Part shown: positions 33,602-57,038 of the stretch, in pieces | Position numbering within the stretch: the first letter of the stretch is position 1 | How the letters are laid out: every line of letters begins with the position of its first letter | NCBI GenBank assembly: GCA_047495785.1 | Contig: JBLDXI010000048.1 | Span: forward strand, 868,001 to 932,000 | DNA length: 64,000 bases | Direction of reading: 5' to 3' | Source: Lepidodermella squamata | Taxonomy: Eukaryota; Animalia; Gastrotricha | Translations under genes and position numbers: made by a program | The notes under the pieces: generated by a model | Told to the model about the DNA's origin: nothing | Seen by the model: only the letters and a program-made list of their open reading frames with translations | Databases searched by the model: none

Positions 33602-35395
33602 TCAAGGGCAAAGCTCTGATAGATGTTTAGTGCAGTCTTGCAAATTGGCGCCTTTCGACGAGAGGTATTCGAAAATTTCGACTTGTCTTCCCAGCGCTGC
33701 CATCAAAACCGGCGCTTTACTGCCACCTTGATAGGCATCAACATCAGCCCCATTCTCAATTAACAGTTTCACCAATTCAAGGCTGTTAATCGAAACAGCT
33801 TTTTGAAGGAGTGAAGTCCCTCCAGTCGTGCAATCATTCACATCCGCGCCTAGATCAACCAGGATTTTCGCCATATCGTAATTACCTTTTTCAAGGGCTA
33901 CCATAAGTGGAGATCGACCTGAATATGGCGTCTTTGCATTTACATCAGCTCCAGCCTTGACCAAAATGCTAATCATTTCAGATCGGTTGTAGTTAGCAGC
34001 ATAATACAGCAATGAATGTTCCTGGTATTCAACTTCGAATTTCGCGCCATTCGCTAGGAGTCGTTTCAAGATATCCAGCTCGCCACTTCGAATAACAGTA
34101 AGTATTATCAAAGCGCTTCTCGGTCTTATTTCCAGAAAAGGATCATTCTCGAGCAGATAGGTAACAACCTCACGCCTAGCGTACACAACCGCGAAATACA
34201 AAGCTCGAGTTCTTGTTTCCTCAAAATAATCAGAAGCTTTCAGTTTTTTTAATTCATCCATATCCCCTCTAGCGCAAGCTTCGATAAAACTACCAGAATT
34301 ATGCGGAACTAGAGTTGCGTTGATAGATTCAAGATATTTTACCACGTCTGAACAGCCAATATGGGCAGCTCGAAGTGCCGGTGGATATCCATCTGAATCG
34401 CCTAAACTAACATCCGCACCCCGTTCGACAAGCAGCTTTACCATGTCTAACTTGCATGAACTCGCAGCATAATATAAAGCAGTATTGTTCGTAGCGTCCC
34501 GCTTGTTAAGGTCCTTCTTAACAGTTGAGAGAGCTTCGACCATTTCATAATCACCCATTGCGGCTGATTTTATCAGAAGTGTCCGACCGTCGTAATAGTC
34601 GTATATATCAGTCGTAGCTCCAAGCTTCAGCAACAGTTTTACAGCTGTGATTTGACCCTCTTCGACCGCATCTTTCAGGGGCGTCGATTTGTAATCAGCC
34701 TCCACGTTTAAATCGACTCCTTTCGAGACAAGATATTCAATTACGTCGATTCGACCCTTGGCAGCAGCGGCGTGAATCGCGGTTCTATCATTGTAGCTCT
34801 CTTTAGCACTCAAGTTGAAACCTCTCTCAGTTAACAGATTTAGGACATCAATGTGACCATTCCCAGCCGCGGCTAATAAAACGGTGTTATCATAGCTGGA
34901 GAGGGCTCGATTATCCAGGTATAATTTGACCAGATCTGTTTCCCCATTCGCAGCTGCCCAATCTAGAGAAGTATATCCGCCGTAATCTTGATCACCAGTG
35001 CTAATGTTCACGCCCTTTTCCAGGAGAAATTTGGCGAATTCAAGCTTTTCCATAGAGTTTTTACCGTCTTTTGTGGAACATGCGGTAAATCGAAGGAGGA
35101 AACTCGTTCGGCCAGCAACACCGTCTTTCTCACCACACATGAACAGCACGCCACTGAAGGTCCAATTTGGGTCGAATTTTCCATCAGTTATCACGTTGAT
35201 GTGAGAAATGATGCGACTAGCTTTGGCTACATTAGGCTTATCCCCGCACAAGTGCATTAGATCTAAATACAGATCATTGACAGGAACGCTAAGATTGAAA
35301 GGTTCATTTTCCAGCTTAGCTTGGCTCAGCTGCCGCTTGAAGCAGCATTCAGCCAGATGAATGCTGAATAAGCTGAGGCATATTATGGCACGCAT
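33602..35395 (-). CDS. Intronless ankyrin-repeat protein with N-terminal signal peptide (597 aa)
   Basis: MRAIICLSLFSIHLAEC signal-like N-terminus; more than 10 ankyrin repeats (e.g. RTAIHAAAAKGRIDVIEYLVSKGVDLN, RSPLMVALEKGNYDMAKILVDLGADVN). Confidence 0.9.
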   Translation of the reverse strand: MRAIICLSLFSIHLAECCFKRQLSQAKLENEPFNLSVPVNDLYLDLMHLCGDKPNVAKASRIISHINVITDGKFDPNWTFSGVLFMCGEKDGVAGRTSFLLRFTACSTKDGKNSMEKLEFAKFLLEKGVNISTGDQDYGGYTSLDWAAANGETDLVKLYLDNRALSSYDNTVLLAAAGNGHIDVLNLLTERGFNLSAKESYNDRTAIHAAAAKGRIDVIEYLVSKGVDLNVEADYKSTPLKDAVEEGQITAVKLLLKLGATTDIYDYYDGRTLLIKSAAMGDYEMVEALSTVKKDLNKRDATNNTALYYAASSCKLDMVKLLVERGADVSLGDSDGYPPALRAAHIGCSDVVKYLESINATLVPHNSGSFIEACARGDMDELKKLKASDYFEETRTRALYFAVVYARREVVTYLLENDPFLEIRPRSALIILTVIRSGELDILKRLLANGAKFEVEYQEHSLLYYAANYNRSEMISILVKAGADVNAKTPYSGRSPLMVALEKGNYDMAKILVDLGADVNDCTTGGTSLLQKAVSINSLELVKLLIENGADVDAYQGGSKAPVLMAALGRQVEIFEYLSSKGANLQDCTKHLSELCP

Positions 35396-35665
35396 TTCAA
35401 ACGAGTAGAAAAAGAGGGGTTAAAATATCCAGAGCTGTTATATTATGCCATCTGATGTACTCCATTTTATAGCCCATTCATTAGAGTTAATTATGTGAAT
35501 GCAATGATAATAACCTGCTATAATGCTTCTGACTGTATCAAGCATTGAACCGCAAGTATTGGATTTGCGCTACAGTGATGGAGTCCGGCAATTGAATTTA
35601 CATTACGAAAAGTGAATGCGTACAGTGAAAAAATAACACTAAAAACTAAATCGGTTCAAAACGAT

Positions 35666-36242
35666 CATAGAGAAAAAATGACCAGAGAAAGCACTCAAGC
35701 TAAAATTTCTAAATCCTCATTTTAGTTCAAAGTTGACTTTCCTAAAACGGGTATCTCCGTTTTCTACCAAATTTTGCATGCCTATGGAACGCGAGCTGCT
35801 CTTTCACTTGGTATAAGCAGTGCTCCGAGTACGGGGGGTAAGGGGGGTAAATGACCCCCCCCCCCCTGGCGTTCGAAAATCTCAGAAAAACGTAAGGGTC
35901 CCCCCTGTTGATTTGTAAATTTTGGGCTCAAAATGCTCGATTTACCCCCCTCAGAGCTGAACTTAGTCGGATCACTGGGTATAAGATTTGAGGTGGGCAA
36001 CCCAACCGTTGATACGATACAAAAACCTCGTTTTCACTATGGTTTTACTTATTTTGATGATATCAAGACTGAGCAGCAATTGCCCACCTCAAATCTTATA
36101 CCATGTGAAAGAGCAGCTCGCGTTCTATAGGCATGCAAAATTTGGTAGAAAACGGAGATATCCGTTTTGAGAACGCACTTCTATAATAATGGAGATCAAT
36201 ATTTTAGCTTGAGTGCTTACTCTGGTCATTTTTTTCTCTATG
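35666..36242. mobile_element. Foldback MITE with long TIRs, CATAG termini, 8-bp TSD (P- or hAT-like)
   Basis: TSD AAAACGAT at 35658-35665 and 36243-36250; arms CATAGAGAAAAAATGACCAGAG... / ...CTCTGGTCATTTTTTTCTCTATG. Confidence 0.88.
35818..35977. mobile_element. hAT-type MITE (160 bp) nested in the left arm of the 35666-36242 element
   Basis: TSD GGTATAAG at 35810-35817 and 35978-35985; TIR CAGTGCTCCGAGTA / TAGTCGGATCACTG. Confidence 0.88.
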
Positions 36243-36254
36243 AAAACGATGTAA

Positions 36255-36840
36255 CTCAGGCTCCAATCCGCCTTTTATTAATCATTTCTTCATCAATGCC
36301 ATCTAAAATTAAGGGCGGTTGCTCGGGAAAATCTTTCGTTAAGGCATTCAAGCTCGCACCTTTCGACTTCAAATATTCGAATATTTCAGTTCTTCCACTC
36401 TACCATTAAAAGCCGGGTCGAGATGATTTCATCGCAGAATGATCGTTCTCAAGCAGAAATTCAACAACGTCACGTCTAGAATAGACAACTGCGAAATACT
36501 AAGCCCGAGCTTTGGTTTCTTTTGAACACTCAAAAGCTATCAATGTCTTCAGTGCATTAACATCAACTCTAGCACAAGCTTCGATAAAACTACCAGAACT
36601 CGGCGGAACTAGAGCTGCGTTGATAGATTCAAGATATTTTACCACGTCTGAACAGCCGATTTGAACAGCACGATTTCCATCTGAATCGCCTAAACCAGCA
36701 TCCGCGCCACGTTCGACAAGAAGCTTTACAATACCAAGACAGCAACAATTCGCCGCGTAATAAAGCGCGGTTTTGTTGCTGAAATCTCGCTTGTTAAGGT
36801 CTATCTTCGCGAGCGATGATGCTTCGACCAATACCAAGTC
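36255..36840 (-). pseudogene. 5'-truncated, internally deleted paralog of the ankyrin gene
   Basis: DLNKRDFSNKTALYYAA..IGCSDVVKYLESINAALVP..SGSFIEACAR matches the intact gene; stop in RA*YFAVVY; jumps to the C-terminal GRTEIFEYLKSKGA. Confidence 0.85.
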
Positions 36841-36923
36841 ACATTTCACCCAATGCACTTTATACCTGAATATGTGAGTTTTATTGGCAGGATTTATTTC
36901 GTCACGAAAATAATCACATAAAA

Positions 36924-38633
36924 TCACATATTTGATGCGTTTTTCGCGCAAATAATTGTTCGAACCGCAAATTCAACAACTTTCATATCTTTTTCATTCG
37001 TCATAAAGAGATAGTGAACTTCAAAGTCAATATCAGCCGCTTCCGTAATGGTTACCTCCCTACTCTCGCAAGACTTGAAGAATAAGTTTCTCACAACGGA
37101 TAGCTGGCTATTCATCTCACGCACCAGTTCATCGTTCATTTCCAAGCAACGGCCAATTTCGCGATTTAAGCTTTCGCGTAGCTTGGTCGACAAGAGTAGT
37201 ACTTGCCACTTGTTAGAGCTCGGCTTGTTGTAGGCAATCGTAAGCTTTTCATCCAGAAAATCTTCGATTTTAGCGGTTTTCAGAAACTCAGCCTGAGCTC
37301 GAAACGCGTTGACGATACGTATATCGACCGGCTCCTTCGATTGCAATGCTTCGAGTTCAGCCAGTTTCATTCTTGTGACCCCAGGAAACCATTCGGGAGC
37401 TTTATCAGCTATCTTCCGGAGCATACTCATGTGCTTAACTTTCGGCTTATGGGCAATGTAGTAAACTGAAGTCTTCAACTTGTTGTATTCGTTGTCCGGC
37501 CCAGTGTAGCAAACAAAGCCTTCAGGGTCGAGGATTAGTTGTTCCGGAATCTTCTGGTTACCTGGCTTGTACTTCTCAAGGTATTCTGCCTCGGTCATTT
37601 CTTTGAAAATCACAGCTTCAAGGTCAGAAATCATCGAATTGATAGTAAGGTTCGATTTCACAGGAAACCAAATCGGTTCGTCGAATTGTGAATTTTTCAG
37701 GTCGAAATGCGGGGTGAATTTGTAGGTATCATTCTGGCAAACGGTCATACCGAGAAATCGGAACAAGCTGCATGGATATCTTACAGCTAGCCCTTGGTTG
37801 ATGCCATTGGCTGATTTCATATCCTTGCATACCGCCTCAAACATCAGAGTTGCACAGTCGACTTTATCATCAATGTTGTTTTCTTGTAGGAGCTGGTCGA
37901 ATTTATCGAAAAAGGGCTGCGAATACTTCTCCCAAGCGTTGATAACAGACGGCTCAGCATTGACTTTCTCGTAATCGATTCCAATATTAGGCAGTATGCT
38001 TGAAATTACGAATTTTGGCTCTTCGATGAAAAACGTTTTCTGGGAAGCAATTACAAGGGTATATGCCTGATTTTCGGTCTTTTGGCGATTAATAGCGGCG
38101 AACTTATTGTCGATTTTTGACATCCAGCTGTTAACCATTCTGCGATAATTGCCGAAGTAAGCCGTCACGCTAGTAAGTGACCCATCGCTTTTAAAGCTGA
38201 GTTTAGCATCAATGTCGACGTGGTCAGGATTCGCCAAATCTTCGCAGAGCTTCTGCTGGCTAGGGCTTAGTCGTTGAGTATTTGATTTGGCCATATCGTC
38301 AGTCTCATTTACTTCGTTTGCAACATTCTGCCGGGTTAGAAGCTCAGCCCCTCGCGTAAGTTGCATCTTTAACATGTGAAATTTGTCATCTGGGCCAAGA
38401 AAGACATAGGTCCCTCTAGCTTCCCGCGCCCATTTCGTCCAAACTTTGCATTCTTCGAAGTATGAAGCAATGTAGACACCGGGAACAATTTGCGGCGCAA
38501 CTTGCTCGAATCGGATTTTGACTGTTTTGAAAATTGAGCCGAGCTTTTTCTTCTGCCCGTGTCGGTAGTTGAGGTATTCGATTAGACCCATCTCAGCGGT
38601 CGCGTCTCCATCATTTTCGCGCTCTTTTGCCAT
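36924..38633 (-). CDS. T4 Rnl1-type ATP-dependent RNA ligase-like nucleotidyltransferase, intronless (569 aa)
   Basis: Ordered motifs WAREARG (Rnl1 ECRG), I SFKSDGSL (K148), Ia ASQK, III TLMFEAV, IIIa FRFLGM, IV DPEGFV, V YNKLKTSVYYIAHK. TATAAAA at 38691-38685 and AATAAA at 36885-36880 on the minus strand. Confidence 0.8.
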   Translation of the reverse strand: MAKERENDGDATAEMGLIEYLNYRHGQKKKLGSIFKTVKIRFEQVAPQIVPGVYIASYFEECKVWTKWAREARGTYVFLGPDDKFHMLKMQLTRGAELLTRQNVANEVNETDDMAKSNTQRLSPSQQKLCEDLANPDHVDIDAKLSFKSDGSLTSVTAYFGNYRRMVNSWMSKIDNKFAAINRQKTENQAYTLVIASQKTFFIEEPKFVISSILPNIGIDYEKVNAEPSVINAWEKYSQPFFDKFDQLLQENNIDDKVDCATLMFEAVCKDMKSANGINQGLAVRYPCSLFRFLGMTVCQNDTYKFTPHFDLKNSQFDEPIWFPVKSNLTINSMISDLEAVIFKEMTEAEYLEKYKPGNQKIPEQLILDPEGFVCYTGPDNEYNKLKTSVYYIAHKPKVKHMSMLRKIADKAPEWFPGVTRMKLAELEALQSKEPVDIRIVNAFRAQAEFLKTAKIEDFLDEKLTIAYNKPSSNKWQVLLLSTKLRESLNREIGRCLEMNDELVREMNSQLSVVRNLFFKSCESREVTITEAADIDFEVHYLFMTNEKDMKVVEFAVRTIICAKNASNM

Positions 38634-40542
38634 GTTAGAATTACTGGAAGAAAACTACCTATGCATAGTGTGGCTAGCACACAGTTTTATAGAGTTTTTT
38701 CCTATGATTATAGTTTGCATCAGGTGATGAATCATCATGCGTCTGTGTGCGTGTGTGTGCACCAGTGTGCTTCTATTGAGACCGCCCATTATTGATTTAG
38801 CGGTTGTAAACGCATTCGTTTGATAACTCCTAAGATAAGCCGCTTATCTGGATAATTCCGGACTTCGAGGACAATCATTTACATCTAGAATTGAATCTGG
38901 AATGAGAATTCAAAATGATTTTCAAGGTCGTCTTTGAATAATCTATAGGATGATCGCAGGCTCCAATTTACAGGATTCCATCTGTACTTCTTGTCGCTGT
39001 GAAATCGTAAAGTTTGCGAATAACTTAAGATTGAAAAAGTTGCTAGACGCTTTTCCGTCCAAAAATTCCATGTCTCCCAAATTCAAGCAATCGTTCAAGC
39101 AATCAAATCGTCCGTAGATACAGATCGATATCCGCTAGGAAGTACACATTGTCTGCAAGCGCCGTTATGAATTATTGATTGCTGACTGCGTGTATAGTTC
39201 ATTCATAACATGGAACATACGAGAAAATCGGCTTCGAGAAAATTCCGCCCGCAATATAAAAAGCGGTACGAAATGCAATATTTTACTGGTGACTGTAAAC
39301 TTGAGAATTTGCTGTCGCGCCTGCTAAATTATAAAGTTTGAGCGAAATGGTACGTATTCGAGAAAGGTTTCTCGCCCGCCTGTTGTGGCTTTGTTCGATG
39401 CTAGCGTTATTAGCCTCAGTGCAAGGTGAGTTGAAGACTGGTTAGGTTCAGCTTCATTTGACTGATTTTCATCTCGTGTTTTCAGCTGGATGTGATTTGA
39501 GCCAGTGCCGCATTGAGTGCAGCCAATATACAGCGTATTGCGGGGCTGACGATAAGTGTCACTGCGACTAGCGAGAAAGTTGAGACTGGGAAAGATCAAA
39601 CAACCTCACAGCTGCTAAAGACAATCGCCTGAATTTGCTTTAAATGTTATCTGTCGTATCTGTGCTTCAAGCTATCTGGCTGGTAACAATAAACGTGTGT
39701 GATGCATATTCCGAACGTTTTGTGATGAATCTAGACATAGCTATTCACATGGACAGCACTGCAACAGATGTACCTCATATCATTAGATTCGTCGGTTCTT
39801 GGAGTTAAGAGCGTAACATACACATTTTTGATAGGGAAACATGAGGCTTTGTTGATGTTTGAAATTATCGATAGGGGCATTAGCTGGCCTAAAACGTCCT
39901 CGCAAATTCAGCTCGAATTCTCAATGGAAAGATCGTTAGTTTCCTATTTGCTGCAGCTTGTCTGTGGTCTATGGGTATGCAATTATTGAGTTTTCTTGAG
40001 TAAAATCACTAATACTGCACTCGGTACTTTTCATGCTCAACCTAGGTCCAAAAGATGATCATAAAATTGGTCCGATTGTTTGTGAATTATTCAGTTGCTT
40101 ACTCGCATGACTGATACACGATTCGACGGGGACTGTTTTGATTGGGAATACGCATCACCTCGTGACTAATACGCCGCATTCTTGCGTGGCAAAAAAATAT
40201 AACGCAGTTTGATCTCTAGGTGTAAGGACAATAGCCATTGGACAATAATTGCAATCCAAGAAGGTTTATTATGGCCTATGAAAGAACTCTGATTTTATTC
40301 TTCGCCATATGTTTGTTACTGGCGGCAGCTCTGGTTGACGTGGTTCATGCTGGTGCGTTTGAATCTTTGGCCTAAGCATCAGCATCATGTTAATTTTTCG
40401 TATTTACAGGCTGCGAACTCGAGACCTGCCGGCGACAATGTTTCCGAAATGAAGCTTACTGCGATGACAATGACTTGTGCATGTGCTGCTAATTCATAAA
40501 AACGAACGAGCGATCAAGTACAAACCCGGTTTTACTACTATG

Positions 40543-41298
40543 TTATAATAAAATATTACCGCCGTCATAGTTGTTCATTTCATGCTTCCCAGTAATAAAA
40601 GTATCTTTTTCTGAAAGCTTCCGTGATGGGTCTGGCAAATACTTTAGAAAAACGAATTTTCCTTGCTCCAGGTAGCTGTTGGAAACTCGTAAGCCGTGGG
40701 TTAACAAGCCCCCTTCGCTGCCTTGGGCATTGTCAGCAAAAAGAACTCTTGCCGCTAAATCCTCACCGTCTTCATTCGCTCCTGGAACTAGAGACCTACC
40801 TTCAACAAAATTGGCAGTGTTAACTCGTGTCAGCATTTTCAATCGAATCTGCATATCCATAGATTCCCAGTAGCTGGAAGGTTGCCGGAAAGTTACTGAA
40901 AAGTTGCTATGATTTGGTGACGGCGTTGCTGTGTTTTTGTTTTCCGAAGTTTCGAATGTTACTGCTTTGAAAATACCAAAGCCAATGGCGGTGAAACCAA
41001 CCGCTAGTATGCCAGCTACCATAATTCCAAGACCTATGTTGGTTTTGTACGAAGGGTGCGTTTTGGAAACTGCTCCGCGGCTGTCTGCTGTTTTATAGGG
41101 AGTTGGTATGTCAAGCGCGTCCGGCCGTTTGCTCATTGGGACGCTCGGCATACCTCGCGTCAATGCTACAAATCGCTTGTCGAGATCATCCATGGGTTGC
41201 TGAGACGGGCCTCTATAACCATAGCTGATGTTAAAATGTTTATTTAACAAGAGCAATGACAGCAGTATTGAACTGAAACCTCTTCGTGCTGCAAACAT
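40543..41298 (-). CDS. Unrecognised SP + TM protein family, paralog 1 (251 aa)
   Basis: Intronless ORF; hydrophobic N-terminus, one TM (IGLGIMVAGILAVGFTAIGFGIF); C-terminal domain shared with two neighbours (EGR.L...L.ARVL...G...G......Y(L/F)EQG...Y(D/G)GG); upstream TATAAAA. Confidence 0.8.
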   Translation of the reverse strand: MFAARRGFSSILLSLLLLNKHFNISYGYRGPSQQPMDDLDKRFVALTRGMPSVPMSKRPDALDIPTPYKTADSRGAVSKTHPSYKTNIGLGIMVAGILAVGFTAIGFGIFKAVTFETSENKNTATPSPNHSNFSVTFRQPSSYWESMDMQIRLKMLTRVNTANFVEGRSLVPGANEDGEDLAARVLFADNAQGSEGGLLTHGLRVSNSYLEQGKFVFLKYLPDPSRKLSEKDTFITGKHEMNNYDGGNILL

Positions 41299-41838
41299 TA
41301 GCCACTGGATAGTCGAAAAAGAGTCGTACTGATGTTGTCTTTTGGAAAAATTGCGTTAAGGCAGACTTTTTATATTTTTTGCAGATCTGCCAATGTATTG
41401 AACGGTTCAAATAATTCACTGCATCTTGGTTTGATTTTCAAGGTTTATAAACGAGCCGCTTTTCTTCGCACTCAGCTTGGGTAAGGCAAAGCGTTATCAA
41501 ATCCAGTAGTTTTTTTGGAGCTTCTGTTGTGTTAGAGGAATATGCAAAGGGTCGATAAATGAAAGCTCAATGGGAGTGCACTCTTCAACACTAAATCATA
41601 AACATATTCTCAAATCATGTATTAGAGAATATTGACGGCTGATTCTTCACGGTCCTTTGCAATTGCATGCCCTGGCCTGTTCCGAAGTGTCTCTGTGAAT
41701 TTATAATGAATTGAAAGGGTTACAAAATTCGGCATTCATCTGGAGTAATTATCGGCTCCGGATTTTTCATCATTAGCTCTACAGATATTAGGCAAACCCA
41801 TTGATACTATTTTGGAGGTGGGAATTCTAAATGTTTAT

Positions 41839-42816
41839 TTAGCGAAGAATGAATCCTCCACCATAATCCGCAGTATCCAAGTTCTTTAACACGGTGGTTT
41901 CGTTTTTCACGTAGTGTAGATTCGGGCTTGGAAAACAGTTTAGTACAGTTATAGGTCCTTGTTCCAGGTATCCAGTAGCAACCGCAAGGCCTTGGCTGAA
42001 AATTCCAGTTCGACCAGCGTTAGATTGCTCAGACCATAAAATTCTGGACATCAGATCATCATCATCTTCCTGGATATCCGCAGTCAACGAACGGCCCTCA
42101 GCTGAGTTTGCTGAATTAACTTGCTTTAGCACTCTCATCCGAATCTGCATGTCAACATCAGGCCAGTTCTCTTGCTGAATCTGGGTCGGTCCTTCGTTTT
42201 TCTTTCGCCCACTGTTTAAGGCGATTGTTAAATAGATTGTGATGGCTATCACACCAGCTGTGATCAACCCTTTGCCTAATTTTGTTCTATACCACGGTGT
42301 TTTAACTGGGTCGCTTGAAGTACCTTGGCTTTTATGCGAGTTCTCAACAGCGATGTCGGATGCCATTAACAAGTCATTCGAAGCAGCTGCACCGGCGGAT
42401 TTAGGCCTCTCCCGATCGCCTATTTTCAGCGGCTGATCTATGGCGCCCTTGCTGCTTTCAAGGCCTTCATTCATAGGAACAAACTTGGATTGTCTGCTTT
42501 TACTACTTGCCGCCTGTTGATTCTTGAGGAATATCGAAGGGCCGCCTTGACTAGGTGACTCTGGCGAACTATTAGGGACTTTCACGAGGGCAGCCATAGA
42601 TCCAGGAGACAGACTGTCAGGCCGAAGATACTCTTCAGCAGATGGCTTTAGAGCTAGTGTATCAGGACGCTTAGGCCTTGCGTTGACTTTGTCCGCTTTC
42701 GCCTTCTGCAATCTCAAAAGAAGTTCGTCAACATCGAACTCTGTAGCAAAGAGATGATCATTAAAAAGAATTAGACACAGGGTGATGGCGAAGTATCTAT
42801 CATACTTGCTAGGCAT
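41839..42816 (-). CDS. Unrecognised SP + TM protein family, paralog 2 (325 aa)
   Basis: Same architecture; DMQIR, EGRSL, YLEQG, YGGGF conserved. Confidence 0.8.
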   Translation of the reverse strand: MPSKYDRYFAITLCLILFNDHLFATEFDVDELLLRLQKAKADKVNARPKRPDTLALKPSAEEYLRPDSLSPGSMAALVKVPNSSPESPSQGGPSIFLKNQQAASSKSRQSKFVPMNEGLESSKGAIDQPLKIGDRERPKSAGAAASNDLLMASDIAVENSHKSQGTSSDPVKTPWYRTKLGKGLITAGVIAITIYLTIALNSGRKKNEGPTQIQQENWPDVDMQIRMRVLKQVNSANSAEGRSLTADIQEDDDDLMSRILWSEQSNAGRTGIFSQGLAVATGYLEQGPITVLNCFPSPNLHYVKNETTVLKNLDTADYGGGFILR

Positions 42817-43099
42817 CTTTCGAATCCGACGGGCGTGTTGGAAAGCCTTGAAATATTCAATTAAGCTGGAAGTTTTAAAAAATTAGGCAAAAACCCTCCG
42901 TTATAGGTCGTATTACTAAAACTAACCAGACTTACTAAACACAAAAACTGTGCAGCTCGGCAAAAAACTAGACTTTTGACAGACAAAACTCTCGTTGATT
43001 TGCATATTTAGTTTTTTTTGATTTAGGCAGTTGAAAGGCCCGAAATTGTCGCTCAGGGCGTTGAATTTGTTATGCCTGGCCGGGATACTAACGGGCTAG

Positions 43100-43565
43100 T
43101 CGCTCTGTCTTTATTATATGCGATATGATCCAGTTTCGGACACACGTTTCGACGTGCACATCTTCGATAGCTGGGTGCGGCTCATGGTGCTGGACTTTTA
43201 TTAATTTTCATGGCTTTACAGTTTGCATTGATTTTTGTGGCCGCTTTCCACGCCTGCCGATTAAAAGCTGTTCTCATTCGCGTCCGTGTGCGGGCACAAG
43301 GTACAAGGTGCGGGCTACGTGTCGAGAGCATTATGCAGTTATGATCGCCCTAGTTAACGCGCCTACCCTTATGATATGTACCGCAGTTGTTGGCTTCACG
43401 GCGGCATCGCCGATGATACAATTAATTGTAGCAGCGTATGGAGCGTTGACTATTTCGGCAACAACCTTCGCGATATGCGCTCAGGGATGTTATCAGCCGC
43501 TTGTCGCTGAACAGACGTTCACAAGGAGTGAACCGTCAAATTCCGCTAGCTTCCTTTCGACTTGA
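43100..43565 (+). pseudogene. Relic of class C GPCR ECL2-TM5-TM7
   Basis: Frameshifted pieces YDPVSDTR / CTSS / LLLIFMALQFALIFVAAFHACRLKAV / EHYAVMIALVNAPTLMICTAVVGF..IQLIVAAYGALTISATTFAI parallel the 7TM end of 52651-55023. Confidence 0.45.
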
Positions 43566-43711
43566 TACTCTCATCAGCTAGCACTTTCAAGTCGTGATTT
43601 TCAGTCGGTAGATACATACGTATTTCAAATAAATTCATAACTTGATTATAAACCCTCGTTTTTCCTCGTTATATTTTATTGATACTAACCTATGGTATGG
43701 GAGTGAATAGA

Positions 43712-44665
43712 CTAGAATCCTCCGTCGTAGTTTTGGTCGTAGTCTATAGCTTGAGCCAAGAAACTATCGCTCTTTGCTAAGGTTTCAACTGGGCCGGGAA
43801 GCATGTCCACAATTTGAACAGGACCTTGCTCGAAGTAGCTCCTTGCGATCAAAACGCCTTCCCCAAGCCAACCTTCATCCTTTGCATAACTGGCCGCCAG
43901 AACCCTTGCCATCAAACCTTTATCGTCGATGAGTAATCGGCCCTCTACGCCGCTAGCATACTTTTTGGTTAAGGTCAAGGAATTGATTCGGGTATTACGA
44001 TCCTTCTCTTGCCCTTGCTTTGTTGCACGTGAGATATCAAGCACTACACCAACGATTGTAGATATTGTTACTAGGGCAGCTACCACAATGAAGGATACTG
44101 CACGCCAACTTAGTTTGCCACGTTTAGGAGGTTCAGCAGGCCGAGTTCGCTGTCCAGGCACAATAACTGCAGCGTTGACGATAATGTTGTCTTCGGGACT
44201 CGCGATAGGTGCTGGGCCCCCAGGCTTTGGCGCCACTACGCCCTCAGACCCGAACTCCGACATTATTTCTTCACTTATTAAAGACGTGGAATCAGGCGAT
44301 TTAGGGCCGCCTAGTTCTGCGGGACTAGTCCTTGAACCAGTTGGCAAGGAATTGGTCCTCTGGCGGAAGCTTGCTCTGTGAGCAGGCTTCATATCAGGAT
44401 TAACATTTGACAGTGAATTGGAGCGTTGTAACGGGGAATGCTGACTGAGGGGTCGTGCATTTGAAGTGAAAAGTGGAGTATCCTGGTCAATCGGCTGGAA
44501 TTCGCCTTGGCTAGGTTGACGCCTGTGCCGCAATCGAATCATATTATCTCGAAATGCTCCCAAATTGTTAGTTATGAGATTGGTGCTCAAGGCATTGATG
44601 AAAATTTGCTGACTGAGCAGGCATGCCGCGATTATCAGGGCATTGAACCTGTTCCAAAGCTCCAT
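43712..44665 (-). CDS. Unrecognised SP + TM protein family, paralog 3 (317 aa)
   Basis: Same architecture; EGRLL, LMARVL, SYFEQG, NYDGGF conserved. Confidence 0.8.
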   Translation of the reverse strand: MELWNRFNALIIAACLLSQQIFINALSTNLITNNLGAFRDNMIRLRHRRQPSQGEFQPIDQDTPLFTSNARPLSQHSPLQRSNSLSNVNPDMKPAHRASFRQRTNSLPTGSRTSPAELGGPKSPDSTSLISEEIMSEFGSEGVVAPKPGGPAPIASPEDNIIVNAAVIVPGQRTRPAEPPKRGKLSWRAVSFIVVAALVTISTIVGVVLDISRATKQGQEKDRNTRINSLTLTKKYASGVEGRLLIDDKGLMARVLAASYAKDEGWLGEGVLIARSYFEQGPVQIVDMLPGPVETLAKSDSFLAQAIDYDQNYDGGF

Positions 44666-45313: not shown

Positions 45314-46356
45314 CTAATCATCTTTTCCTCCTTTACTTCGAAGGAACTGTGCCACTTTCTCCTGGCCATTCACTGCCGCATATTTGACCGGGGTCAGTCC
45401 ATTGTTGTTGTGAGCATTAATATCAGCTCCATTCTCAAGCAGCAACTGGACAACATCGAGATGGCCACCCCTAGCCGCCCACATCAGAGGAGTAACTCGG
45501 TACTCGCCCCTCGAATCAACAACCGCGCCGTTCTCGATGAGAAACTTCGCAATTTTAGGATCGCCGATATAGGACGCTTGGTGTAACGGTGTGTTGTTGC
45601 ATTCATTCGGCATATTCACAAAGGTTTTGAACATCTTTTGGTCATCCCCCATGAGCTCCTTAGCTTTATTGACTAGGTACTGGATCGTTTCGAAGTGGCC
45701 ACCCCAACTTGCGAATTGAAGACTGTTATTTCCGTTGGACCAACCGTTATCAACAATCTTCTCGCCATGTTTAGATTTTTCGTAACAAGTCTGAAGTAAT
45801 TGTAATGGCATGGGAGATGATGTAATCATCGATTGCAAATCTTCTAACATCCCCTTTCGGCTAGCGATGAGAAATAACTGAAATAAAACAATATCTATAG
45901 GCCAAAAAGTTGGTTCTTTTCAATTACCTTCTCAGTATTAGCATCTACAGATATTTGATTGCATAAGGCTTCCTTAAGTTGAGCTTTGAAAGTGCCATTC
46001 GCTTCAAGTTTCTCGTAGTCGAGGTACAACGCATCACCGTACAGCATTTTCAAAGCACCAGACAACTTGTGTTGCCGGCTGAGTTTAACCACAACAAATT
46101 GTTTGTTGGTATCTGCGACATATTGAGCTTCCCGTTTGCAATTCACAGAGTTTTCGTAGTCTTGCGAGAAACATAGCAGGACAACGGTTGCTTGGTCTAT
46201 GCCTTGACTCATTGCATCGTAGATGTTCTCGCCTGGTTTCATGTTCTTGAAGTCGACCCAATAAGTGATGCTTAGTTCGTCTAGCAAACTGCATAATTTC
46301 TTGATTTCGGGCTGTTGTTTCTGGCAGTAGCTAATAAAAACGTTTGTAGTCGTCAT
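45314..46356 (-). CDS. TIR (TIR_2-type)-ankyrin fusion protein; join(46356..45928,45877..45314), ~330 aa
   Basis: VFISYC, YWVD, LLCFSQDYENSVNCKREAQY TIR motifs; a 50-nt phase-0 intron GTAATT...TTTCAG joins in frame to LFLIASRKGMLEDL and ankyrin repeats (NTPLHQASYIG, VTPLMWAARGGH). Confidence 0.85.
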
Positions 46357-46996
46357 TTTATATATGGTATAGTTGAATGATTTGGGCAATACTCCTTGGC
46401 GGCGCACTGGAGTGATGAAAGCCGTGCGATCCATAGTATATCAATAAGCTTGAATTATGCATTGAGTTTGCGAATTCACACAGTTTACATGTTTTGTACC
46501 CACAGCGGCAAATAGGCTTTCAAGGGTCTTTAAATCGATCGCAGATATTTGCTCTGCTATAGCGAATTTCTGATCGATCAAAAGAAAGATCAAAATCTGG
46601 ACAGGCAAGTTCAATGTTCTTCCTTTTCCCGAATTGCCGTTGTTTTGGAGTAATGTTTCGAATTCGTTATTGGAATTCGATGAAAAATCAATGATAAATT
46701 TGGAAATTTTTCAGAGGAATTGATTCAAAATATTAGTTTGATATGAGAAAAGGGGCGACAGCATGTATGGAACTAATCTGAAACAGCTAGGAACAGCGAA
46801 ATAGAATAAATTTTAGACACAGAGCGAAAATTTGAAAAAATCACATTTAAACGCTGTCAAAAACCGCCATTTATTACTTCAGAGCATATAGAGATCACTC
46901 TGTTCTCTACAGCTCCACAGCTCTATCAGCAATAAGGTTATACATTTGAACACGCTTGGATATAAATGTAAAATGAAGCCCAAATAAAGTACGATG

Positions 46997-48055
46997 TCAT
47001 TTCTTGCCCGGTCGAACTTTGCTGAACAAAGAAGATTTCTTTGTTTCTTTCTGACTATCGTCATCTTTCGGTTGATCGAGATTGGAATAAACCGGCGGAG
47101 GGCCTGGATAACTCGGCGCTGAAGGTTCAACGGGTTGAAGCACCATTGGCTTAAAAAACTCGTCCCGATTGATTGGTGCGGGGCGCGGTTGCTCATTTGA
47201 TTGAGTCTGCTTGTTCCTACGATCAAATATTTTTTCGAAATCCGCAGCATACTCCTTACGGCAGTCATCTAACACTCGAATGGGGATGGGCGGTTTTGCT
47301 GCAGCAGTTATGAATTTACGGATCAGATCATCTCGTAATGTGGTCACCTTTCTAACAATGGCTGCTTTGTGCAACGCTACTGCCTCCTCAGGCAAATCGT
47401 TCTCCACCATACCCTCAAGCTGGTCGTTATCAACACAGCCCATGAAAGACACGCCCATTTCGCAGTATTTGTAATACGTACCGGCTTCTTTATCACATTT
47501 TATGCCCGCCTCAAATTCCTGCTTCTTTGCTTCCGTCAAATTTTCAGCGTTTGTCAGTAGAAGAATAGAAGCTTCGGAAAATCCCTCGCCAAGATATTCC
47601 ATTATTTTCTTGAACGGGATCAAATCATTCAGCTGCGTCCGGCCAGCCTCCGATACAAAGCATACAACGTGAAGCGAAGTTATGCTGTGTGTCATGCATT
47701 TGGCTGAAAGTTTCAGGAGGGTCTCGTCATCCCTCTTTTCGCCATCGTCCTCCCGCCTGTACTCCTGCAAGCCTGGCGTGTCGATTATGGTCAACTGATA
47801 TTGCTCTCCTGTATCCGGTTCTGTTATACACAAATTCTCGCAAATTGCGTCTTTCGTCCCCGAGTAAGCTTGACGCTTCGCTCCATCCGTTGGGTCAATC
47901 AATGTTCGAACAAGAGTGCTTTTACCAACAGAGCTGCGGCCAACCAGTAGGACGTGGATAGGCTGTGCTCGTCGAACATTGTAGTTCCGGTTGACATTGG
48001 ACTTGAAGAAACTGGACGCGCGATCTTCGTCCCGCTTTCGAGAATTTGATGACAT
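46997..48055 (-). CDS. AIG1/GIMAP-like P-loop GTPase, intronless
   Basis: VLLVGRSSVGKST (G1), SGTK (G2), IIDTPGL (G3), LLLTNAENL (G4-like); helical then Pro-rich C-terminus and basic tail. Confidence 0.85.
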   Translation of the reverse strand: MSSNSRKRDEDRASSFFKSNVNRNYNVRRAQPIHVLLVGRSSVGKSTLVRTLIDPTDGAKRQAYSGTKDAICENLCITEPDTGEQYQLTIIDTPGLQEYRREDDGEKRDDETLLKLSAKCMTHSITSLHVVCFVSEAGRTQLNDLIPFKKIMEYLGEGFSEASILLLTNAENLTEAKKQEFEAGIKCDKEAGTYYKYCEMGVSFMGCVDNDQLEGMVENDLPEEAVALHKAAIVRKVTTLRDDLIRKFITAAAKPPIPIRVLDDCRKEYAADFEKIFDRRNKQTQSNEQPRPAPINRDEFFKPMVLQPVEPSAPSYPGPPPVYSNLDQPKDDDSQKETKKSSLFSKVRPGKK

Positions 48056-55967: not shown

Positions 55968-57038
55968 TTAGGATTTTCGGCGCCGGAATACAACAAACGC
56001 ATTGTCCCAAGTTTTAGCCAACAAATCGGCTTGAGGATATTCCTCCCGAAGCACCTGTCTATACTTTGACCATAGTGTCTTGCGAATAACTTCTTTCTGA
56101 TCATAAGTCCTTTCATTAGAGAGAGCAGACATGAATGCAGGTTCGATTACGCTTTCTCCAATGGAGCACATATCAGCGATCAAACGGTCGAAGTCCCGAT
56201 GTTGAAGGTAAGATTCGTAGAAAACATTATCTTGGGTCTCGCAGTTCTCTGCATGAATAACTTCAAGGTTCAGATTGTCCAAAATCTCCGGTTTCGTCAC
56301 ATCTTCCAGTGAACGAAATACCATTCGAATATTGAAGTCCATCAGCTCTTCAAGCCGAATAAATCCCGATAGGTAGAGATCATCAGCAGCCATGTATAAA
56401 GCATCGTAGAGATTAGCAATGAGGCCACCGGTTACAATATGAATTACGATAATACCACCAGGAACCAATTCTCTAGACCGGGCTTGAAGAAATGTTTTCC
56501 AGTCCCTCTCCGCTTGCTCAGCCCATACTGCCTTCTCAGTCTCATTACCGTAAACTGGAAGAGCATGATTGACGAGTTTACAAGGTACATCAGAAGCCCA
56601 ATGAACGGCACAAATTGAAATTCCGAAGTAAAGACTGCAGTCTGGTAGGACTTGTTTATAAAAAGAGCAACCAGATGCTAGACAATGCACGCCCTTATGA
56701 TGCTGAAGGTAAGATCTTTCGTCGAAATGAATGATATTGAACAATCCAGTCCAGTTGTTATTTGGCAGGTCCTCATGAACTGCAATAATTGTTTTTACGT
56801 CGTGCTTTTCGCGTAGTTTGGTGACTATCGATGATATCGCTGCGGAACTGTTAGCTCCGCTACTGCAGCCGAAGTCGGCAATGAAAATGGTATCTTTGAG
56901 ATCAGCAGAGAGAGCATCTATACCCTGTTTGACGAAACGCTCGGCCATGTGCAAACTTTGCCGCTGCGTTTGCGAATAATTGTTATAGTCCTTTCGCATA
57001 ACGACTGAATGGCATGAATAGCCATTGGATTCAGCCAT
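55968..57038 (-). CDS. SABATH-family SAM-dependent carboxyl methyltransferase, intronless
   Basis: YNNYSQTQ, IADFGCSSGANS, HEDLPNNNWTGLF, GCSFYKQVLP, AVHWASDVP, QAERDWKTFLQARSRELVPGG: the full SABATH motif set. Confidence 0.92.
   Translation of the reverse strand: MAESNGYSCHSVVMRKDYNNYSQTQRQSLHMAERFVKQGIDALSADLKDTIFIADFGCSSGANSSAAISSIVTKLREKHDVKTIIAVHEDLPNNNWTGLFNIIHFDERSYLQHHKGVHCLASGCSFYKQVLPDCSLYFGISICAVHWASDVPCKLVNHALPVYGNETEKAVWAEQAERDWKTFLQARSRELVPGGIIVIHIVTGGLIANLYDALYMAADDLYLSGFIRLEELMDFNIRMVFRSLEDVTKPEILDNLNLEVIHAENCETQDNVFYESYLQHRDFDRLIADMCSIGESVIEPAFMSALSNERTYDQKEVIRKTLWSKYRQVLREEYPQADLLAKTWDNAFVVFRRRKS

Follow-up and report, generated by a model that had tools for sequence, protein, structure and literature searches.

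An intronless Rnl1-fold RNA ligase-like gene in the gastrotrich Lepidodermella squamata, with relatives mainly in giant viruses

Animals are considered to depend on RtcB for RNA ligation; the 5'-3' ligases known from them are RLIG1 and amphioxus BfRNL. A 64-kb stretch of Lepidodermella squamata DNA (hereafter, the window) contains an open reading frame (ORF) with the motifs of an ATP-dependent RNA ligase, which raises the questions of whether it is a gene of the animal, where it came from, and whether its product seals RNA. We consider it moderately probable that this is an intact intronless host gene, likely expressed, encoding a stand-alone RNA ligase that was likely acquired long ago from an RNA-repair family of giant viruses and whose probable task is to seal broken RNA.

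Reading frame, transcript signals, and haplotypes

The first-pass annotation of this locus had described an intronless 569-aa ORF with a TATA box about 50 nt upstream and AATAAA about 40 nt downstream. The ORF is uninterrupted and lies on the minus strand (the annotation had given no strand), and all of the motifs quoted are present in its translation, in the order claimed. TATAAA begins 58 nt above the ATG, and AATAAA occurs in two copies past the stop. The gene and its immediate surroundings comprise the following features:

36924..38633, minus strand: Rnl1-fold ATP-dependent RNA ligase-like protein, intronless CDS, 569 aa (ORF, predicted model, fold searches)
38686..38691, minus strand: TATAAA, putative TATA box (sequence match)
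36893-36898, minus strand: AATAAA, proximal copy, 26 nt past the stop (sequence match)
36880..36885, minus strand: AATAAA polyadenylation signal, distal copy, 39 nt past the stop (non-genomic T-run at 36859)
36859..36862, minus strand: probable polyadenylation site, 18-21 nt past the AATAAA at 36880-36885 (X2 contig)
36442..36840, minus strand: degenerate partial copy of the neighboring ankyrin gene, abutting the ligase 3' end (tblastn)

Sequencing run X2 covers the ligase gene over 36859-38607. Its contig 36859-37097 has 13 T of non-genomic origin together with adapter-like letters, whereas the genome itself has only 3 T there; we take the adapter-like ends of X2 contigs to be sequencing adapter. 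Run X2 also shows GT..AG skips at two introns in neighboring genes. None of the listed runs is recorded as RNA, and X2 is RNA only by the tool's guess; on this one run of guessed status, the poly(A) junction and the skips in two neighbors agree with the host expression proposed in the first pass, and the ligase gene is likely expressed. X2 contigs end at 38607, within the ligase CDS.

By its behavior, run X1 is genomic DNA of a second haplotype, about 1% different and without the 540-bp repeat at 35683-36222. X1 extends across the ligase gene and both flanks (30/30 bins of 36500-39800), and one of its contigs (36628-37838, 1211 nt) joins the ligase CDS to the ankyrin-gene remnant, which is 67% identical to ankyrin residues 282-418 (tblastn). 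Overlapping X1 contigs reach a spliced neighbor, and no single record runs from the CDS to an intron-bearing gene. Codon use is host-like: GC3 was 0.50 in the ligase gene and 0.42-0.55 in 11 neighbors, whereas 19 ligase genes from viruses or virus-like loci had a median of 0.22, and the codon-use fit was −1.10 to the host versus −1.33 to the viral set. The second haplotype, the contig bridging CDS and remnant, and codon use together bear out integration in the animal genome.

The variant listing gives 40 of the 82 differences in a 3.3-kb stretch. The ORF has 22 of the listed allelic differences, 17 synonymous and 5 non-synonymous, where 21% synonymous would be expected (pN/pS 0.08, p 2e-8), and none of the 8 listed indels falls inside the ORF. 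The listed variants show that the ligase gene is under purifying selection in the animal.

Contamination by viral DNA, a chimeric contig, or an endogenous viral fragment inserted recently and neutrally would be in keeping with an intronless, virus-related gene at a locus that no long record crosses. We nevertheless regard such explanations as highly improbable because of the second haplotype, the codon use, the synonymous excess, and the X2 poly(A) junction, and because contig depth on the ligase gene (97-107) lies within the range of unique neighbors (96-136), contig depth being no measure of copy number. Moreover, a Pfam scan of 24 other ORFs in the window recognized no other viral gene. Separately, over 37839-39427 two haplotypes are seen in X1 and X2 alike, with a depth ratio of about 2:1 (e.g., 67 vs 38), which may point to triploidy or to an additional copy.

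Fold, active site, and a rewritten loop

The AlphaFold2 model of the ligase ORF (pLDDT 86.7, pTM 0.86; 49-sequence alignment) resembles T4 Rnl1 (PDB 2c5u, 5tt6, 9do4; PF09511) more closely than any other solved structure. Foldseek placed T4 Rnl1 at the top (E 1.2e-6), and structural alignment superposed model residues 16-403 on T4 residues 0-258 (Z 15.8-16.0, rmsd 3.7, 251 residues). Next came the fungal tRNA ligase domain Trl1-LIG (Z 13.6-15.0; best alignment rmsd 4.9, 286 residues), followed by archaeal Rnl3 (Z about 12.9), Rnl2/Rnl5 (about 10), and DNA ligases (at most 8.4). The first pass had named a comparison with T4 Rnl1 and Trl1-LIG as the check on its ligase reading, and both matched, with Z of 16 and 15. 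Since the residues below are invariant across the family and the fold match is independent of motif reading, the ligase motif set is more than chance. The label "T4 Rnl1-like" therefore holds for the fold and the nucleotidyltransferase (NTase) motifs, but not for membership in the Pfam or T4 sequence family: the ORF had no Pfam match and belongs to the divergent family described below.

Sequence searches were largely silent. The ligase ORF matched 0 Pfam families at E<=0.1 (PF09511 included), 0 NCBIfam families, and only two weak unrelated families in PHROGs (E 0.08-0.17), and it found no sequence match among PDB sequences, either as a single protein or as a profile, or among GenBank phages. 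Its best ESM Atlas matches (score 0.96) were PF09511-bearing or unnamed, mostly viral clusters, with weak recognition (1809, below 2300). The claim that the protein carries no kinase or phosphatase healing domain stood, since no Pfam family was found at E<=0.1 and the ligase profile covers residues 1-566, that is, nearly the whole protein; the stand-alone ligase architecture is thereby borne out. The model divides as follows:

37425..38588, minus strand: adenylyltransferase region, residues 16-403 (T4 Rnl1 structural alignment, conservation)
36927..37424, minus strand: all-helical C-terminal domain, about residues 404-569, ~165 aa (DSSP of the model)
37791..37820, minus strand: loop after motif III, residues 272-281, in which family R/H/E is replaced by M/N/G (family alignment)

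The adenylyltransferase region consists of an Rnl1-like N-subdomain (R73, R94, E97) and an NTase core (K148-x-D150-G151, E266, E371-G372, K385-x-K387, Y391, H395), so that motifs I (KxDG), III (E), IV (EG), and V (KxK) of the covalent lysine nucleotidyltransferases are all present in an NTase fold. K148, D150, G151, E266, K385, K387, E97, and Y392 are invariant in 149/149 family rows; R73 (148/149), E371 (147/149), G372, Y391, and H395 are near-invariant and kept in the ligase ORF; and R94 is conserved in 142/149 rows. As described in PMC6379707, motifs I, III, IV, and V serve metal and alpha-phosphate binding, and Arg54 and Lys75 of T4 Rnl1 contact the gamma-phosphate; judging from the alignment, R73 and R94 are likely the equivalents of these two residues.

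The "ASQK" motif of the first pass is there in letters, but its lysine is probably not the motif Ia lysine: by register with Trl1 motif Ia, given as SKHS in PMC6379707, that position would be Q198 rather than the adjacent K199. Gln occupies the register position in 118/149 family rows. No row (0/149) has RxxR within 25 aa past motif V, from which no 2'-phosphate requirement is predicted.

The helical C-terminal domain is only 11-21% identical to the viral relatives, and its residues 538-569 have pLDDT <50. Whole-model alignments to T4 Rnl1 stop at T4 residue 258-267 of 374, before the T4 C-terminal domain; those to Trl1 extend further, to Trl1 residue 398 and model residues 428-432, and the C-terminal domain may bear a partial likeness to Trl1. 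Substrate specificity is predicted to lie with this domain.

In the loop after motif III, R272, H279, and E281 of the family have become M272, N279, and G281. These positions are conserved in 140/149, 137/149, and 142/149 rows, with the complete triad in 130/149, and the ligase ORF is the sole row of 149 with Met at 272; its further departures, Y208 and W323, are conservative. By spacing, the rewritten loop would match the region of Trl1 His227, an RNA-end contact according to PMC6379707. Loss of the triad may have changed sealing or specificity, or impaired sealing, and is the main ground for doubting unchanged ligase activity; together with the diverged C-terminal domain, it suggests a changed RNA target. 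It could thus be that the gene has the same origin and expression but has lost family-type sealing, so that its product only adenylylates or caps RNA or DNA ends, binds RNA ends, or acts on a new substrate. The concerted loss of three residues at a putative RNA-end contact and the divergence of the C-terminal domain speak for this. However, the ATP- and metal-binding residues are all intact, 18 other family members depart at one or more of the sites 272, 279, and 281, and K199 and K273 might, speculatively, restore the lost charge. We regard loss of sealing as unlikely, though it is a reading to be taken seriously, and retain RNA sealing as the probable activity.

Giant-virus relatives and the origin of the gene

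A word-index homolog search recovered only 2 relatives, and an exhaustive HMMER search was needed to obtain the family: 340 representatives at E<=1e-3, the best 150 of which were used for listing. The best match (E 3.6e-60) was 34% identical over residues 54-486, and the highest identity to any relative among the best 150 of 340 was 36-37%. On sequence evidence, the ligase ORF is a member of a divergent, unnamed, mainly giant-virus family. An affinity to large DNA viruses had been proposed, and the relatives that could be placed were indeed almost all giant-virus proteins or contigs (Fadolivirus, Klosneuvirus, Hyperionvirus, Dasosvirus, and GVMAGs). The homology to the giant-virus HD-kinase-ligase family (Fadolivirus QKU48_gp1229), whose members are annotated as hypothetical, extends over the ligase module, with the invariant residues common to both. 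The best viral structure matches in Foldseek (E 1e-35 to 1e-27) were the family members KNV1 A0A1V0SII7 (Klosneuvirus), A0A3G5A8M5 (Hyperionvirus), and A0A3G4ZR63 (Dasosvirus), and structures of viral relatives gave TM-scores of 0.60-0.70 over the query.

GVMAGs accounted for 8/9 distinct IMG/VR contigs carrying family members. Twenty metagenome loci had a GC content of 0.16-0.41 and an ORF density of 0.64-0.99, versus 0.40 in the window, and in 6 of them (L008, L010, L011, L015, L017, L018) the ligase lies beside an uninterrupted E1 ubiquitin-activating gene. One virus-like locus also has an adjoining TROVE gene (L011:6081-7097), and one has a second RNA ligase, PF09414 (L025:2500-3402). Two pattern scans of GTDB genomes turned up 98 and 32 candidate stretches, none of them a relative, and insensitive pattern scans of IMG/VR gave no matches, whether the query was the single protein, P0050, or the P0139 trio. 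Among 30 clusters looked up, 1 bore a virus name, 1 had a member with a Planctomycetes MAG label, and most were unnamed.

Across 152 proteins, >200 residues precede the ligase in 86, and a long C-terminal extension follows it in 11; the other 55 consist of the ligase alone, a count that includes the ligase ORF itself and some partial sequences. In 24 N-extended proteins that were scanned, weak P-loop kinase-type matches occurred in 15 and weak HD matches in 6; the ligase ORF lacks these N-terminal HD and P-loop kinase modules. Three C-extended members (P0127, P0135, P0144) carry an EEP domain. By eye, the C-terminal halves of P0013 (the Fadolivirus protein) and P0023 show nucleotidyltransferase-like and nuclease-like motifs, P0099 has an R3H-like start, and P0123 has a transit-peptide-like start.

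Unlike the giant-virus proteins, the ligase ORF is ligase-only, has lost R272, H279, and E281, has a diverged C-terminal domain, and is found in an animal genome, where its codon use resembles that of the host and it has poly(A) signals. Neither the family nor the animal copy was described anywhere in a literature search of open full text, subscription papers being outside its scope. The ligase ORF offers a compact single-domain entry to this family, which numbers at least 340 proteins without annotation, is possibly a new RNA ligase clade, and is possibly of use as an RNA-joining reagent.

In trees from which three short fragments (P0091, P0142, P0149) were excluded, and which were midpoint-rooted with no clade test, the branch of the ligase ORF was long (1.6 vs a family median of 0.69). 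Its sister group was P0139/P0146/P0148 under one trim (support 0.96) and P0099/P0123/P0050 in the strict core (support 0.89), where two of the three have high-GC-type composition. Because the branch is long and the sister group shifts with trimming, we name no donor. The first-pass proposal of horizontal acquisition, possibly from a large DNA virus, accordingly stands as to viral family affinity but points to no direct donor, and the phylogenetic check on relatives came out likewise: the nearest identifiable ones are mainly giant-viral, with no stable sister group. We favor a giant-virus source, direct or via another eukaryote, given the lack of introns and the distribution of the family; amelioration and divergence suggest that the acquisition is old. 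That no animal orthologs were seen counts for little, as the host lineage is poorly represented in the database; the neighboring acid phosphatase, for comparison, had no database match at E<=1e-30. If this origin holds, giant-virus gene flow has reached an animal germ line and been kept for host function.

The gene might instead have come by a cellular-eukaryote route, through a protist or algal intermediate or as an ancient eukaryotic lineage of patchy distribution, at the extreme as a BfRNL- or plant-type tRNA-splicing ligase. The strict core groups the ORF with three stand-alone forms that likewise lack E281, but these are long branches, and the grouping is lost under another trim. P0050 and P0123 have GARP/FYMINK of about 2.3 (family median 0.43) and may, on composition, be cellular; P0123 also has its transit-peptide-like extension, and P0050 was not found in the insensitive IMG/VR scan. 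Precedents are at hand in the stand-alone ligases of amphioxus and Mucorales (PMC10946426) and the seven Rnl1-family genes reported for Naegleria (PMC4408790). On the other hand, the highest-identity matches, among those listed, lie in an AT-rich virus-like core, the gene is intronless, no eukaryote name appeared in the 30 clusters, and a Trl1-type version conflicts with the lack of RxxR in all 149 rows. We think a cellular route improbable, and continue with the giant-virus source.

Predicted chemistry, known ligases, and neighborhood

The three-step sealing chemistry is, from the motifs, the most likely activity of the ligase ORF. K148 would be adenylylated by ATP to give enzyme-AMP, the AMP would be moved from K148 to an RNA 5'-phosphate to give AppRNA, and attack of a 3'-OH on AppRNA would seal the bond at a 5'-P/3'-OH RNA break. 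The mode would not require a 2'-phosphate and would resemble that of T4 Rnl1 or RLIG1, unlike that of Trl1 or BfRNL. As the ORF lacks an HD or kinase module, healing in trans would be needed, and cyclic-phosphate/5'-OH ends could be healed by Clp1- or ANGEL2-like host enzymes. A role in RNA repair is what we infer.

The ligase ORF is thus predicted to work like T4 Rnl1, with which it shares the N-subdomain and NTase core, whereas membership in the Rnl1 family finds no support in a Pfam or C-domain match. The two differ in length (569 vs 374 aa), are 18% identical, and diverge at the putative motif Ia lysine (Gln in the ligase ORF); the alignment also falls short of the T4 tRNA-specificity C-domain. 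RNA ligase families are defined by appended domains (PMC6379707).

Fungal Trl1-LIG (Rnl6 clade) shares the adenylyltransferase fold at 11% identity, without the KIN-CPD fusion in the ORF. We rejected a Trl1/Rnl6-type tRNA ligase because RxxR is found in 0/149 rows and there is no fused kinase or cyclic phosphodiesterase. Stand-alone, Trl1-type, 2'-phosphate-dependent ligases have been described in Mucorales and in Branchiostoma floridae as BfRNL (PMC10946426), the latter being an animal 5'-3' RNA ligase (PMC3400036, PMC10946426). BfRNL is an animal enzyme that only seals and leaves healing to enzymes in trans, as is predicted for the ligase ORF, a comparison made by description only.

RLIG1/C12orf29, a human stand-alone 5'-P/3'-OH RNA ligase with a Yasminevirus homolog, has been proposed to repair tRNA with Clp1 and ANGEL2 (PMC11494293), and sets a precedent for a stand-alone RNA ligase common to animals and giant viruses. 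The ligase ORF was ruled out as an RLIG1 member, since RLIG1 is a minimal NTase that lacks the RNA-binding C-domain, while the model includes both an N-subdomain and ~165 aa of helical C-domain; the RLIG1 structure 9c6l gave Z 4.4 against the model. Its lineage, with giant-viral relatives, appears distinct from both RLIG1 and BfRNL. A viral-type RNA ligase gene has also been reported in an amoeba genome (PMC5203793). That BfRNL and RLIG1 are already known as stand-alone 5'-3' RNA ligases in animals lessens the surprise of the present gene.

The window encodes animal-like domains (sushi, ShK, laminin-G, PAN, class C GPCR with an ANF-receptor domain, TIR, AIG1, and ankyrin). Around the ligase gene lie the following features:

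33602-35395, minus strand: intronless 597-aa ankyrin-repeat gene with a signal-peptide-like start (Pfam scan)
35665-36243: MITE-like repeat whose inverted repeats are both terminal and nested (very high X1 depth)
39347-39571, plus strand, intron 39426-39485: gene for a small secreted peptide, in divergent orientation to the ligase (splicing and polyadenylation seen in X2)
40543-44665, minus strand: three tandem orphan paralogs of 251, 325, and 317 aa (ORFs)
45314-48055, minus strand: cluster of ankyrin, TIR_2-only, and AIG1/GIMAP-type GTPase ORFs, 7-9 kb from the ligase (Pfam)
55968-57038, minus strand: intronless SAM-dependent carboxyl methyltransferase (PF03492, E 7e-37)

The secreted peptide gene lies ~0.7 kb from the ligase, and its product had no Pfam match; the mature part has six cysteines (C-x4-C-x3-C-x6-C-x5-C-x-C), a spacing that we take to be defensin-like. 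The cluster at 45314-48055 is possibly an innate-immunity locus. An immune role for the ligase is suggested by this neighborhood and the T4 analogy only. In its boldest form, which we put forward tentatively and consider doubtful, the protein would be a domesticated giant-virus counter-defense enzyme of an undescribed clade, with its own C-domain, a motif Ia Gln, and a rewired RNA-end-binding loop, that, set among ankyrin, AIG1, TIR, and defensin-like genes, gives animals a third way of repairing RNA cut by pathogen ribotoxins or by the host's own immune nucleases.

The orphan paralogs had no Pfam match and show signal-like and membrane-like stretches and a common C-terminal segment. The MITE-like repeat is missing from its site in one X1 contig, which indicates a polymorphic insertion. 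The PF03492 carboxyl methyltransferase family is unusual in animals, and the gene at 55968-57038 is a candidate for a second case of horizontal transfer.
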